The notes under the pieces are model-generated. The model was not told where the DNA came from and did not search any database. It saw only the letters and a program-made list of their open reading frames with translations. A stretch of 20,000 nt of DNA from an uncultured virus (IMG/VR IMGVR_UViG_3300035034_000734) (Duplodnaviria > Heunggongvirae > Uroviricota > Caudoviricetes): the IMG/VR virus record IMGVR_UViG_3300035034_000734. The stretch is one strand, 5' to 3'. This document shows positions 652 to 19,189 of the stretch, piece after piece; position 1 is the first letter of the stretch; every line of letters begins with the position of its first letter. Both the position numbers and the translations under genes were made by a program.

Positions 652-2115
652 ATGCACATCCCTTCATCGACGCCGAGTGCGTCAACCATGAGTGGTGTAT
701 TCTGTGAAATGATCGATTACGATCGCCTCTATGAATCGGTATCCGATCATGCGATACTGGTTAATACCTTTAACATCCGAAACGACGCTGAGAAGGAACG
801 ATTGAACCGCTTGTTGTACACCGAGTACGACGGCGATACGCTGGACACCATGCCTGCCTGCGACTGTGGCATCCTACGGGGTGAATACAACAAAGGCGTT
901 CGCTGTACGAACTGTGGTACGGTGGTCGTGTCGGTAACAGAGCGTCCTATGGAATCTCTGTTGTGGATCAAATCCCCAGACGGTGTGAAGGCGTTCATCT
1001 CTCCGGCGGCCTGGAACGTGTTGAATTCCATGTTCAGTCACCGAGGCGTTCAGATGATCCGATGGTTGACCGATCCGACCTACACTCCGAACAAGGGTGT
1101 GGATAAGACCGATCCGCTGTTTGATAAATTTCGCGACATCAACTGGAAGCGGTCCATCAACCACTTCATCGAGCACTTCGATACGGCACTGAACGTTATG
1201 TTTGATGCCCGAGTGGTCAGTCCCATTCCAAGGCGTCGTCGTACGGAACAATTCATTGAGGAGAATCGAGACAGGTTCTTCCCCACGTACTTACCCATCC
1301 CTAACCGTTCGATCTTCATCACCGAGAAGACGGCCATGGGCACTTACGCCGACAACGTGATGTACTCAGCGATCGATGCTGTGCGCACCATGACGTCTTT
1401 GGACTCTGGTATTGGTCCAGCGACACAACGGATCAAGGAGAATCGGACTGTAAAGGTGATTCAGCAATTGTCCACCTATTACACCGAATACACCAAGAAC
1501 AACCTGTCCAAGAAGCCCGGTATGTTTCGTCGGCAGGTCTACGGTTCTCGACTGGATTTTTCTGGTCGGGCGGTAATCAGTTCGTTGTCGCACCCCCACA
1601 GTTATGACGAATTGCATTTCCCTTGGGGCTTAGCAGTAATGATGATGAAGACTCACATTACTAGCAAACTCCTCAGGCGCGGTCTGACCCCATCGCAATC
1701 CGAAGAATTCTTGATGCTCCACACCACCAAACATCACCCACTACTGGAGACGATCTTCAACGAGTTGATCAGTGAACATCCTCAAGGACGACTACCGGTG
1801 TTGTTTCAGCGAAATCCCTCGCTGGTACGCGGTTCAGCTCAACAGTTGTACATCAGTAAGATCAAACCGGACCCCAACGTCAACACCATTAGTTTCTCAG
1901 TCCTCGCCTTGGCAGCGCCTAACGCCGACTTCGATGGCGACGAGATGAACGTAGAGATGTTGCTTGATCAGAAAGAACTAAAGGCGTTCAGTCGATTGGC
2001 CCCACATATGGGCGTTCTTGATACACACGCCCCGTTTAAGATATCAGGAAACATCAAGCTACCTGGGCCGGTCATGTCAACCATTGTCTCATGGATGCAT
2101 GCTGGTGAGGAGTGA
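652..2115 (+). CDS. Non-virion RNA polymerase beta' subunit, N-terminal part (phiKZ gp55-56.1-like)
   Basis: Catalytic motif PNADFDGDEMN; Zn-binding CDCG...CTNC; conserved beta' segments KPGMFRRQVYGSRLDFSGRAVI and FQRNPSL; RBS AGAGGAG upstream. Confidence 0.95.
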   Translation: MHIPSSTPSASTMSGVFCEMIDYDRLYESVSDHAILVNTFNIRNDAEKERLNRLLYTEYDGDTLDTMPACDCGILRGEYNKGVRCTNCGTVVVSVTERPMESLLWIKSPDGVKAFISPAAWNVLNSMFSHRGVQMIRWLTDPTYTPNKGVDKTDPLFDKFRDINWKRSINHFIEHFDTALNVMFDARVVSPIPRRRRTEQFIEENRDRFFPTYLPIPNRSIFITEKTAMGTYADNVMYSAIDAVRTMTSLDSGIGPATQRIKENRTVKVIQQLSTYYTEYTKNNLSKKPGMFRRQVYGSRLDFSGRAVISSLSHPHSYDELHFPWGLAVMMMKTHITSKLLRRGLTPSQSEEFLMLHTTKHHPLLETIFNELISEHPQGRLPVLFQRNPSLVRGSAQQLYISKIKPDPNVNTISFSVLALAAPNADFDGDEMNVEMLLDQKELKAFSRLAPHMGVLDTHAPFKISGNIKLPGPVMSTIVSWMHAGEE

Positions 2116-2804: not shown

Positions 2805-2839
2805 TTTAGGTAGGGGTGACGCCCTGCCTAAATTTTTTT
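2805..2839 (+). terminator. Rho-independent terminator
   Basis: TTTAGGTAGGG-GTGACG-CCCTGCCTAAA stem (one G-U pair) followed by T7. Confidence 0.85.
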
Positions 2840-2855
2840 GTCGATAGGTGACGAT

Positions 2856-3494
2856 ATGCTAGGTAGCATGCAGTCTTTCAACGACGATCAATCTGTAAGT
2901 CGAATTGCACCGCCGATGTATTTGGTTGATGGAAACGTCGTTGCGTTAGAACGCCCCAACTCAGAACTGACGGTTGGTTGGCCGTTCGCTGAAGTAGTGG
3001 ATGGTATGCCTCGGTGGTACATCCCAGCCGACGAAGCCTACCTTATCTATCGACGGCTAAAGAAGTCGATGACCGCGATTGGTTTAAGTTTTTTGGACTT
3101 AGAAAGTAGGTTCTTGTACAAGTCAAGTTCCCCCATGCCTCCTCCTAGGAGAATCAGAATGAGAAAATTAAGCGGTCTTCTTCTAGACCGGATGGCATCC
3201 ATTGCGATCGATGTCGCCCACGCAGACGAAGCCAATAAAATGGCGTTAAAGTTGTATCAGATGTTGCCGGTGGATCATCGAGCGTGTTTGGACCATCACG
3301 TTCAAAAAGGACCCCATATTGCACAAGGATATGAGCTTCACGAACATCAGCAAGAACTTGTACAAATTGGTCTATTGACGCGCATTGTGGTTTCCGGTAA
3401 GACAGGTAGCATTGCGGCTAACATGACGGCCGTTCACGTCTATACTGCTGGACTAGCCGTTTCCGCAGAATCTCACAAGGGTAATAACCGATGA
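2856..3494 (+). CDS. Hypothetical protein
   Basis: Start moved from TTG 2838 (in the terminator tail) to ATG 2856, which has AGGTG upstream; ATGA overlap with the next gene; no recognisable motif. Confidence 0.7.
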   Translation: MLGSMQSFNDDQSVSRIAPPMYLVDGNVVALERPNSELTVGWPFAEVVDGMPRWYIPADEAYLIYRRLKKSMTAIGLSFLDLESRFLYKSSSPMPPPRRIRMRKLSGLLLDRMASIAIDVAHADEANKMALKLYQMLPVDHRACLDHHVQKGPHIAQGYELHEHQQELVQIGLLTRIVVSGKTGSIAANMTAVHVYTAGLAVSAESHKGNNR

Positions 3495-3883
3495 CACGGG
3501 TTCCAACACTGACACCGGCTGGTTGGGTCGATGACGTTGTGTCCATGAGCGTCAAGTTAATGGACTACTTTCTCGTCACCGAACACAGTCAATCACATTT
3601 GTACCGAGGTAACATCACGTCCTTAACGTACTTGGTGCAACAATACGGCAGCGAACCCGATGCCTTGGCTGAACACACTCGTGCAAACCTTCAGAACCAC
3701 CTCTCACGGTACTTTGATGAGGTACAGGTCAACACCTCCATTACCAACTTAAATGGTCCTGACGGTCGTTACAACCTTATACTTGACGTCTTACTGTCAA
3801 AAGACGGCAAACAACACAGCTTGGGACGCTTGTTAGAAATAGGGGAATCTAAGGTTCTCTCGGTTTCTGACAAATCCGCTTGA
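3491..3883 (+). CDS. Hypothetical protein, possibly T4 gp25-like fold
   Basis: 130 aa; RBS AAGGG; segment LQNHLSRYFDEVQVNTSI...RYNLILDV loosely resembles the gp25-like helix-strand-strand pattern. Confidence 0.7.
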   Translation: MTRVPTLTPAGWVDDVVSMSVKLMDYFLVTEHSQSHLYRGNITSLTYLVQQYGSEPDALAEHTRANLQNHLSRYFDEVQVNTSITNLNGPDGRYNLILDVLLSKDGKQHSLGRLLEIGESKVLSVSDKSA

Positions 3884-3900
3884 TAAACAAGGAAACGAAT

Positions 3901-4545
3901 ATGCTTTCGAACAGTCAGCGCATTGAGTTAGTGCGGCGCATGGAAGTCATAACTCAGGAAATGAACGACATCGCTCACATTCTGAACACCAACCCAGTAC
4001 CAGTGACCGACGACGACATCGATCGTGGCGTGCGGTCTCTGTTGAAACAAGAAGCCACTCTCGTGTTATCGTCGTTGTCCCGTCAACTTGAGGACGGGAT
4101 CGACAACACCGTATTGGCGACGTATCATCCCCGACAGTCGGGGGACAAATGTCTGAAGGCCTATGCCCGTGAGACCACCAAAGAAGCTTTGATGGTGTTT
4201 AAACGGATGTTAGAGCTGGGCAATTATCGATACGCCACCAAGGAAGATGAAGGGTCTGAAGCGTTCTGTGTTCAGTTGCAGTTCTCTGAAACAACTCCCG
4301 ACGTCCGGCTGGAAATGGTTCGAGTAGAACCGTCTCAACCCATAGCGCAGATTGGCCCTAATCGTCGAGTCCGCCAGCTTATGTCGGAGGAAACCTTACG
4401 ACAACACCTAGATCACACCAAGGTTAATCGAGCTGACGTTGAACAGGCCGTTATTGAACAACAACGACAGATGTCCGAAGACGATATCGTCTGGTTCCAC
4501 GTTGACGTTACCAATCAAAAAGCCGCCGATAAAGCGACTGGTTAA
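3901..4545 (+). CDS. Hypothetical protein
   Basis: ATG 3901 preceded by AAGGAA, preferred over TTG 3880; 214 aa; no recognisable motif. Confidence 0.7.
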   Translation: MLSNSQRIELVRRMEVITQEMNDIAHILNTNPVPVTDDDIDRGVRSLLKQEATLVLSSLSRQLEDGIDNTVLATYHPRQSGDKCLKAYARETTKEALMVFKRMLELGNYRYATKEDEGSEAFCVQLQFSETTPDVRLEMVRVEPSQPIAQIGPNRRVRQLMSEETLRQHLDHTKVNRADVEQAVIEQQRQMSEDDIVWFHVDVTNQKAADKATG

Positions 4546-13025: not shown

Positions 13026-14231
13026 GTGAGCGATGCAATTGTAAAAGAAACTCGGCGTAATGAACTCAGACCGGACATTCTGTCCGTAAACAGTTTACAT
13101 TGCTGGCCTGGACAGATATCTTCTCCTCGGCTGCAGATGTTTGGTAGTCACATCAGTCAGAGTTTGACAACCGTAGGGGCCAGTGAACGCCGTTGCTTTA
13201 CCGGTATGGAACCTAAGTTCGGTAAGTACACGTTTGGGGTTCGACTTGAACACGATGCTCGGGTGATCAAACTCATCACCCGATACCCTCGCACACTGGG
13301 CGATAACACCATTAAAGAAAGTCCGGAAAGCATTCTGATCTACGAGTACGATCGACGGCTGTCCAGTGGTCAGATGGTTAAGGAAGTGGATTTCATCAGT
13401 TGCCCCAGCCATCACACGCTGCATCAGAACTTTGGTTATCGCTATAAGTATCTGGACGCGCCATCGGACTACATTGGCGAAGGTGAGGTTCTCGCTCAAA
13501 GCCCTGCCATCGCTGAAAACGGCAACTACAAATTCGGTCTGGAAGCCAACGTCGCTATGATGTCGGTACCTCAGATCATTGAAGACGGTGTGGTGGCCAG
13601 CGAGTCTTTCTGTAAACGAATGACCACAACGGGCATCGAGACATACGTGATCAGCTTCGGTAAGAACAAATACCCACTGAACATCTACGGCGACTACGAC
13701 AATTACAAGATCCACCCAGACATCGGCGAACACGTTGGTGAGGACGGTATCTTGATGGCGATGCGTCGGTACGACGACGAGTTGGCTCCGGTCAACATGT
13801 CTCGAGCTGCTTTGAGGAAACCTGATTTTAAGTACGACGAGTGTGTCTACGTAGAGCCAGGTGCTAAGATTGTGGACATCCGAGTCAGTCATGACGAGCG
13901 TCTGTGCGGCGTGATCCGTGGTAAAGGTATGAACACCCCGGTGGGCATGCACGACCAACCCGACAAGTATTTGACGGCAGACCAAGTGTTCTACCGCTCG
14001 GTACTGAACGAGTACAAACGTCTGTTCGCTTCTCGTAAAGACGCTTTGCGCATCACCCCTCGGTTCCACAACCTATTGGTACAAGCGCAAGCGGCGACCA
14101 CCTCTGGTGACAAGCGTCGGATGATGCGAACGTATCGGGGGGTGCCAATCGACGAGTGGCGTATTGAGATCACAGTTGAGTATCCCATCGTCCCCACGAT
14201 TGGGTTTAAGTTGACAGGGTGTCATGGTGAT
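13026..14231 (+). CDS. Non-virion RNA polymerase beta subunit C-terminal part (phiKZ gp71-73-like), exon 1
   Basis: GTG start with RBS AAGGAG; SSPRLQMFGSHISQ and IEDGVV motifs; ends in IGFKLTGCHGD, the first part of the conserved GDKxxGRHGNKG motif. Confidence 0.92.
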
Positions 14232-14594
14232 GCGACTCTAAATTAACAGATATGAAGTTAGAGTCTGTCCGCCTCAGCAGCGATGTTGGGTGCGAATCTC
14301 TTTGAATTGCTGGGACGTCTTATTAGACGTACGCACCACTGTCGTGGGGAAACCACACGATCACGGTCTGAAAAGCGTACGGTAGAGACAATCAGCAGCG
14401 AAGCTTCTACGTACTGTCGTGAGGCAGGATAGGAAGAACGTTCAACGACCAAGGCCTTACCAGCCTGTAGGGGTCAAGCGACCCCGAAGTGGAGAGCGTC
14501 TCACTGAGACGAAGATATGGTCTGGTCCTTATGGAGACATAGGGCGGGTGTCTTAGCACACCGGCTGCACGTAGCGAGTGTAGTGGACAAAACG
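14232..14594 (+). ncRNA. Group I self-splicing intron (IA-like, 363 nt, no homing endonuclease ORF)
   Basis: P element AATTGCTGGG (14305), Q AATCAGCAGC (14390), R GTTCAACGACCAA (14440), S AAGATATGGTC (14512); P4 TGCTG/CAGCA; P7 GACCA/TGGTC; exon 1 ends in U and intron ends in G; removal restores HGD|KGV in frame. Confidence 0.93.
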
Positions 14595-15464
14595 AAAGGC
14601 GTACTTTGCGACATTGTTAAGGACGAAGACATGCCCGTGGACGCTGACGGCAACCGGGCAGAGTTGATCATGGATGGCCTATCGACTATTAAGCGGATGA
14701 ACGTGTCTCGCTGTATGGAGCAGTATCTGAACGCATGCTCTCGAGACGTGACGAAGAAAATTCAGGCGATGGTAAAGTCAGGCGAATCCAAGGAAGAGAT
14801 CAACAACTATTTGATGCCGTATTATCAGATCGTCAGTCCTCGTATGGTTGACTTGGTCTCGAAGAAGGGTATGGTGACCGATGAACATCTAGCGGCGATC
14901 GTTGAGGATGGAATCTATCTGTGGCAGCCTACTGATAACGAGGTGGAGCCCATGGATGTAATCAAGCAACTCAACGAGCACTATGCTCCTACCTTTGGTC
15001 CAGTCACATACCGTGGCATGGGCGGTGAGATGAAACGCACGGCGAACAAGGTACTGATCGGGAGCATGTACATCATGTTGCTCGAGAAGACCGGTCGTAA
15101 CTGGGCAGGTGTGGCCTCATCCAAACTCAGTCACTTCGGTACCCCAGCGAAGTTGACCAGCGCGGATCGTCACAGTCAACCTGGTCGTAACCAACCGATC
15201 CGATTCGGTGAATCCGAGGGTCGTCTGTTCGTCGCCATGGTTGGCGGTCGAGAAACGGCGGAACTCTTCGATCGGACCAACAACCCCGTGGTTCGTAAAG
15301 TGATTCAGGAACGGATCTTACGAGAAGCCAAACCCACCGCTATCGAGAGCATCATTGACAGGAAGAAGTACCCCAGCGGCAACGGTCGCGTCTTGTCCTT
15401 GATACGCCACTTCGGTGAGTGTGCAGGTTGGCGCTTCAAACGTGAGGTAACACATAATGACTAA
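14595..15464 (+). CDS. Non-virion RNA polymerase beta subunit C-terminal part, exon 2
   Basis: Begins KGVLCDIVKDEDMP...GNRAELIMD...KRMN; also GSMYIMLL and RFGESE motifs; predicted spliced product is 691 aa. Confidence 0.92.
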   Translation, partial: KGVLCDIVKDEDMPVDADGNRAELIMDGLSTIKRMNVSRCMEQYLNACSRDVTKKIQAMVKSGESKEEINNYLMPYYQIVSPRMVDLVSKKGMVTDEHLAAIVEDGIYLWQPTDNEVEPMDVIKQLNEHYAPTFGPVTYRGMGGEMKRTANKVLIGSMYIMLLEKTGRNWAGVASSKLSHFGTPAKLTSADRHSQPGRNQPIRFGESEGRLFVAMVGGRETAELFDRTNNPVVRKVIQERILREAKPTAIESIIDRKKYPSGNGRVLSLIRHFGECAGWRFKREVTHND

Positions 15465-18964: not shown

Positions 18965-19189
18965 ATGACCATGGTTTTAATTTTCCTTGTAGGGTTAGGC
19001 TGCGTGCCTGCCATCTTCGGATCGATGATGCTCTTTCACGTCTTCATTCGAAAGAAGAGTGCCCCGGTGGACAAGTCAAACCGGATTAATCATCTTCGAC
19101 TGGTCTGGTTCGCCATGACGCGGGAAACCTTGTTTGTTGAATTGTTCTCTTGGTTGAAGAACGACGAATACGATAACGTCAAAGATTAA
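18965..19189 (+). CDS. Small putative membrane protein
   Basis: 74 aa; RBS GAGGT; hydrophobic N-terminal ~28 aa followed by RKK. Confidence 0.7.
   Translation: MTMVLIFLVGLGCVPAIFGSMMLFHVFIRKKSAPVDKSNRINHLRLVWFAMTRETLFVELFSWLKNDEYDNVKD

Follow-up and report, generated by a model that had tools for sequence, protein, structure and literature searches.

The window, by which we mean the whole 20,000-nt stretch of viral DNA analysed here, is a chimallivirus core block that runs from the nuclear shell protein and a gp55-like beta-prime subunit on to a gp74-like subunit and a helicase; the phiKZ gene numbers of these neighbours are presumed ones, assigned by gene order. Three ORFs inside or beside this conserved block (2838-3494, 3880-4545 and 18965-19189) have no PHROG match. 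Within the block, one polymerase subunit is encoded in two pieces:

13026..14231, + strand: exon 1, non-virion RNA polymerase beta C-terminal subunit (phiKZ gp71 part), 402 codons, including the first conserved lysine, K395
14232..14594, + strand: group I intron, 363 nt
14595..15464, + strand: exon 2 (phiKZ gp73 part), matching phrog_3295 positions 404-693 and starting with the second conserved lysine, K403

Exon 1 matches phrog_3295 positions 5-403 (E 1e-120), and the two exons abut between positions 403 and 404 of this profile. Exon 1 likewise matches residues 5-392 of PDB 7OGP_C (E 2e-72) and exon 2 residues 394-693, and the exons abut between residues 393 and 394 of that single 700-aa phiKZ chain. 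The 5′ junction lies between U14231 and G14232, where ...CATGGTGAT is followed by GCGACTC, and the 3′ junction between G14594 and A14595, where ...AAAACG is followed by AAAGGC; exon 2 begins AAAGGCGTA and the predicted spliced joint is CATGGTGAT next to AAAGGCGTA. The earlier note had proposed that joining U14231 to A14595 restores the motif with its two lysines, and in-silico removal of the 363 nt gave a single open frame of 691 aa with both conserved lysines, reading TIGFKLTGCHGD and then KGVLC across the joint. Two contiguous homologues read GFKVTGCHGDKGVIC at this place. With the intron retained, the frame meets stops at codons 407, 410, 412, 469 and 494. The last base of the intron is a G (G14594), as group I introns require, and a splice site 3 nt upstream fails in the window because base 14591 is an A. 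Many other in-frame pairs of a U and a G lie within 30 nt, and HGxKG spacing is obtained only from 14232 and 14594.

The interval had been called a group I intron from its letters alone, and the covariance-model check bore this out. Of 4227 Rfam families searched over the entire window, only RF00028 matched, at 14197-14544, with 71.7 bits against a cut-off of 50, an E-value of 1e-16 and the full model (1-253) covered. The region folds at a z-score of -3.4, and none of 100 shuffles folded as well. The predicted elements are as follows:

14229..14269, + strand: P1, exon GAU 14229-31 with guide GUC 14267-69 (U14231 with G14267)
14234-41/14258-65, + strand: P1 extension, GACTCTAA with TTAGAGTC, 8 bp closing a 16-nt loop
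14270..14294, + strand: P2 hairpin, GCGA tetraloop at 14280-83; covaries
14298..14522, + strand: ribozyme core, P3 to P8, including P4, P5 with extensions, P6/P6a/P6b and J8/7 (AAGAUA, 14512-17)
14298-304/14490-96, + strand: P3, 87% paired across 17 introns, ending in three G-U pairs
14308-13/14392-97, + strand: P4, 93% paired across 17 introns
14447-51/14518-22, + strand: P7, GACCA/UGGUC, 100% paired, first pair G-C in 17/17
14452-55/14463-66, + strand: P7.1
14470-75/14480-85, + strand: P7.2; covaries in 6/6 pairs
14497-503/14505-11, + strand: P8
14527-33/14538-44, + strand: P9, GAGA loop, one G-U pair
within 14527..14594, + strand: P9.1 and P9.2, one edge mismatch each, and the terminal G14594

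The four stems whose letters had been quoted in the earlier note (14234-41/14258-65, P7.1, P7.2 and P8) all pair without mismatch, and its P9 stems also form; P8 is more likely 6 bp, because the loop as drawn is of 1 nt. The P1-like stem likewise pairs, but it is the P1 extension, the splice-site helix itself being that of GAU with GUC. The exon-frame stop TAA at 14244-46 lies in the extension hairpin. A possible P10 of 4 bp (14263-66 with 14597-600) can be drawn in the window. When 17 related intron cores are aligned, pairing holds in 88.2% of the 1098 cells, and two-sided changes occur in 51 of the 65 pairs. No shuffle in 500 reached the observed value, and sliding the partners left 36–46% paired, a comparison in which the structure is favoured since it was drawn from the window's own sequence. 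The pairs kept poorly are the outer pair drawn for P5 and the innermost P3 pair, each in 2/17. P7.1 and P7.2 lying between P7 and P3′ are the mark of subgroup IA/IA2, and here both pair. The T4 td and Twort orf142 introns belong to subgroup IA2, with P7.1/P7.2 between P7 and P3′, P9.1, P9.2 and an early in-frame stop after the 5′ splice site, all of which the window intron shares; they interrupt other host genes, in phages that transcribe and translate in one compartment.

The window intron departs from its relatives at two paired places. Its exon end is GAU and its guide GUC, 38 nt before the P element, whereas the other 26 tabulated introns have exon GGU and most readable guides are GCC, about 37–40 nt before that element (the L202 group falls outside this readable set). 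The GAU with GUC combination recurs in L222, which carries a 321-codon frame with an HNH motif recognized by eye and whose core groups with that of the window (support 0.82), in a clade with L177 and L224 (0.998). A metagenome scan gave eight stretches, seven in the non-virion polymerase gene, two of these being known loci. In P7, the window has GACCA/UGGUC where 15/17 cores have GACUA/UAGUC, the fourth pair being C-G instead of U-A. Both departures keep the pairing, as one would expect if the ribozyme works.

The insertion point is immediately before the codon of the second beta lysine of the non-virion polymerase, and the start of exon 2 aligns with phiKZ K394 and E. coli RpoB K1073. In the phiKZ structure paper (PMC8287921), K386 and K394 are given as the two conserved lysines of gp71-73 and the Mg-binding DFDGD is placed in gp55; the motif interrupted by the intron is therefore that of the lysines (K395 and K403 in the window) and not that of the catalytic aspartates. 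The placement in the catalytic motif, as first described, has accordingly to be corrected to the two-lysine motif of the beta double-psi barrel, the catalytic NADFDGD being uninterrupted in the gp55 homologue (window 652-2115).

The comparison with phiKZ gp71-73 suggested at the outset showed the same insertion site. The phiKZ intron (NC_004629.1, ~64454-65671) interrupts gp71/gp73 at the identical point, between HGx and KG before K394, and shares with the window an RF00028 core, two hairpins after P7 and the same 3′ architecture. It is 1218 nt long, with a 316-aa NUMOD4-HNH ORF (gp72) embedded in L1, exon GGU, guide GCC and a short P5, whereas the window intron has 363 nt, no ORF, GAU with GUC and an extended P5. 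The best blastn hit of the window intron is the PhiPA3 gp65-66 intron (HQ630627.1, ~55005-55454; 76% over 145 nt), which is at the same junction, ORF-less and 450 nt long, and is termed self-splicing in a preprint (bioRxiv 10.1101/2023.09.22.559000). The two cores fall on different branches, and the PhiPA3 L1 has about 100 nt ending in an endonuclease C-terminus (EDFNGWIFKEM), unlike the window intron, whose putative remnant is 33 nt from mid-gene and spans a hairpin. PhiPA3 also has the gp210 intron in its virion polymerase (gp211/209), likewise a group I intron at a conserved motif of a polymerase beta gene in a chimallivirus, although gene and site differ; its gp210 is described as an active nickase used in competition (Birkholz 2024, PMC11620839), whereas the window intron encodes no nuclease. 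The site is thus a known one, and the window intron is a new member of a known intron family. In the literature found, partly accessible, we met no survey of this insertion site, nor an ORF remnant forming P1, a question that it touches only narrowly.

Among 70 viral homologues returned by a profile scan of viral contigs (including L141, an identical copy from the same phage, and the identical pairs L147/148, L184/185 and L202/203), 45 have no insert, 14 have an intron at the window's site, 10 have one 3 nt upstream and one (L207) is interrupted further downstream. L052, L084, L093 and L130, found by a pattern scan, were left out of the table, being a duplicate contig, distant, or too short in the flank. 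Introns without an ORF make up 9 of the 24 at the window's site or 3 nt upstream. These ORF-less relatives measure 302–450 nt, so that the window intron, described before as a minimal ribozyme, is only compact. In a FastTree tree of exon 1 (72 loci, L208 missing) intron presence is patchy, and intron-bearing and empty genes are sisters several times, the window phage and its closest relative G001 (76–79% identity, no intron at the window's site) among them. Genes that are nearly identical carry ORF-bearing introns in L168 and L169 and ORF-less ones in L167 and L173.

Several further arrangements were observed in related genomes. Eleven loci (L079, L155, L164, L178, L182, L202-L205, L208 and L210) have their intron at the upstream site, which lies 3 nt 5′ and follows the HG codons. 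The sister relation of the cores of L178 (upstream site) and L184 (window's site) suggests that the insertion point may have shifted by 3 nt. L207, L208 and L210 carry further group I-like inserts in exon 2, some 28 codons from its start, and L208 and L210 have two introns each in the non-virion polymerase gene. At the window's site in L184 and L185 (2276-3070), the intron ORF of 265 aa has a cysteine-rich N-terminal part, belongs to a different cargo family and found no Pfam match at E 0.05. The intron of L219 in the same gene (~1-520, turned to intron sense) has an ORF that ends near P5 and looks unlike the HNH family (..VDFYIPELNAVVEADGSQH..), a putative Vsr/DUF559-type nuclease. In G001 itself, a group I intron that holds an HNH-like ORF lies at C1 ~3565-3903 (L212), where the beta-prime frame breaks after ..APNAD, and another intron lies at C1 44919-45290 (L214), within a few codons of the Asp-Asp site of virion beta.

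We consider it about 90% probable, from sequence comparison, that the 363 nt are a group I intron at the phiKZ gp72 junction that probably excises itself, yielding a single subunit of 691 residues, and has likely lost the HNH endonuclease of its relatives. An intact endonuclease ORF was not found in the intron, as the earlier note had stated: there is no start-codon ORF above 49 aa on the + strand, as scanned on the identical copy L141, and the longest stop-free stretches are 56 codons on + and 71 on -. The nearest intron cores, L177 and L222, have HNH-type frames of 305–321 codons in L1. One short piece of such a frame may survive:

14233..14265, + strand: putative HNH endonuclease remnant, 33 nt, frame +1 RL*INRYEVRV, spanning the P1 extension hairpin

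Site endonucleases read KLIVNRYEFRF, RLLNRYYEVKE or KLVKDKFEVRV near their middle. With a profile of 11 of the 16 site endonucleases (L184 and L185, of another family, and three near-duplicates being left out), 14233-14265 ranked first among 152,286 six-frame windows of the contig. Because the likeness was first spotted by eye, the nulls were corrected for 307 profile windows and three frames; the score was then reached by none of 1000 dinucleotide shuffles, by none of 998 41-mers drawn at random from the genome, and by 0–21 of about 1500 controls when stops were penalized more heavily, windows were shortened or the shuffling preserved the hairpin. A held-out profile of four later-found endonucleases at width 11 gave the same peptide and motif as best, matched by 16–213 of about 1500 controls (1–14%), and at width 8 the signal was gone. 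Nucleotide identity to any relative is 12–19/33. The same method recovers the C-terminal remnant of PhiPA3 and gave nothing comparable in 8 other ORF-less introns. Since the 33 nt match an internal endonuclease motif, the endonuclease was probably lost rather than never present, and we think it fairly probable that the P1 extension is a surviving 33-nt piece of the former ORF.

It is unlikely, if still worth weighing, that in this lineage no endonuclease was ever present in the intron and that it reached the site without an ORF, moved by a free-standing nuclease (collaborative homing), RL*INRYEVRV being a chance likeness. Homing in trans is described for T4-like phages (PMC3984707), and the weakness of the remnant tests with held-out profiles also favours it. 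A relative of any of the 16 site endonucleases, as a nuclease acting in trans, was not found in the 76 kb of the phage, which are only about 28% of the genome; this and the HNH frames in L1 of the nearest cores speak against such an arrival, and the null controls speak against chance. The history that we favour would be that an HNH-bearing intron homed into the site and its ORF was then deleted, the ribozyme being retained since nothing short of exact removal brings the lysine motif back.

The same phage has a second group I intron, at G000:C1:19597-20255 (L003 1194-1852), of 659 nt and 79.7 bits with RF00028, in virion polymerase beta after ..VDMDD, apparently the PhiPA3 gp210 site. Its 98-codon frame matches only the C-terminal ~87 aa of related endonucleases (44–48% identity), so its nuclease part has been deleted. 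An origin of the window intron from this one was rejected, that core grouping with other virion-polymerase introns. Both introns carry GATATGAAGTTA within their first 35 nt, at window 14248-14259 and G000:C1:19619-19630, and it contains TATG. The endonuclease leaders of L168 (2170-2240) and L169 (2173-2240) fold stably, at about -21 kcal/mol, into a hairpin that sequesters the GGAG ribosome site and has TATG in its loop; a late transcript initiated within this loop would leave the GGAG accessible. A similar leader arrangement controls T4 I-TevI.

That the shared 12-mer is a vestige of a late promoter, and the window hairpin the old translation-repressing leader of the endonuclease, is improbable. 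The late promoter of phiKZ is given as TATG in PMC7598289, TATG does lie in the GGAG-burying hairpins of L168 and L169, and both strands of the 76 kb together contain the 12-mer just twice, once per intron. However, TATG alone occurs 320 times in the contig, the 12-mer also encodes R-Y-E-V in both introns, and when the window hairpin was compared with 16 leaders, even the best resemblance fell short of significance (p 0.22).

Returning to the window intron, the chemistry proposed for it is that established for group I introns. A guanosine bound at the G14447-C14522 pair would attack after U14231, held by the GAU/GUC helix, and the freed exon end would then attack after G14594 in a second transesterification; the putative 4-bp P10 might help both. 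A stop follows the exon within 1–14 codons in 27/27 introns, and the review cited above (PMC3984707) links such early in-frame stops to ribosome stalling and folding. Native phiKZ polymerase has one 74-kDa gp71-73, with the intron unmentioned in the portions seen (PMC4666361); a preprint calls gp71 and gp73 a spliced fusion (bioRxiv 2026.09.21.753271), and phiKZ orf72 deletions are viable (PMC12676376). Long-read RNA of phiKZ gave no splicing evidence at gp56, gp72 or gp179 in the conditions of that study (PMC10914365), a finding that weighs against the splicing model and against splicing being easy to detect. Related literature also includes PMC11512511 and PMC7824862.

The claim that the full subunit depends on splicing agrees with the stops of the unspliced frame and the 691 aa restored by removal, splicing of the window copy being predicted from these. 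Two polypeptides made without splicing, of 406 aa and of 315 aa from ATG 14517 inside the intron, are very improbable. This in-frame ATG does open a frame continuous with exon 2, and jumbo-phage polymerases are naturally split elsewhere, but it stems from the compensatory P7 change (UGGUC against UAGUC), and 4 and 26 foreign residues would fall between the two lysines. Separate translation of exon 2 is unlikely also because in 16/25 related loci the open stretch 5′ of it lacks a start codon, and phiKZ produces a single chain. Translational bypass was rejected too: the intron of the window can be divided into whole codons, but among its relatives every remainder on division by 3 occurs.

A codon-602 TAA (G000:C1:18424-18426) stands in frame in virion polymerase beta of the same contig, where 3/4 aligned relatives have Tyr; it is a sequencing error or a nonsense allele, and the contig is therefore not error-free. 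A dead or misassembled intron in a defective phage, which this stop would favour, is hardly credible, given the identical 363 nt in a second record (L005), the compensatory P1 and P7 departures and the essential role of the non-virion polymerase in phiKZ.

For annotation, the two ORFs become one essential polymerase subunit. A cycle of gain, decay and loss at one polymerase site fits the intact, decayed and empty alleles found among close relatives. Good splicing of T4 introns needs translation. Chimalliviruses keep transcription apart from translation (PMC12908238), and a short ORF-less intron is a convenient substrate for asking whether splicing needs translation in them; the same question can be put to PhiPA3, a cultured phage, so the window copy adds less. 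If the remnant reading holds, this would be a small, clean case of endonuclease debris reused as RNA structure. More tentatively, and at somewhat less than even odds, a 33-nt mid-piece of a dead endonuclease gene may have been recycled to lengthen P1, as a helix that also holds the stop for ribosomes; the relic of a selfish gene would then belong to the machinery that splices an essential polymerase mRNA, which is made in a ribosome-free phage compartment.
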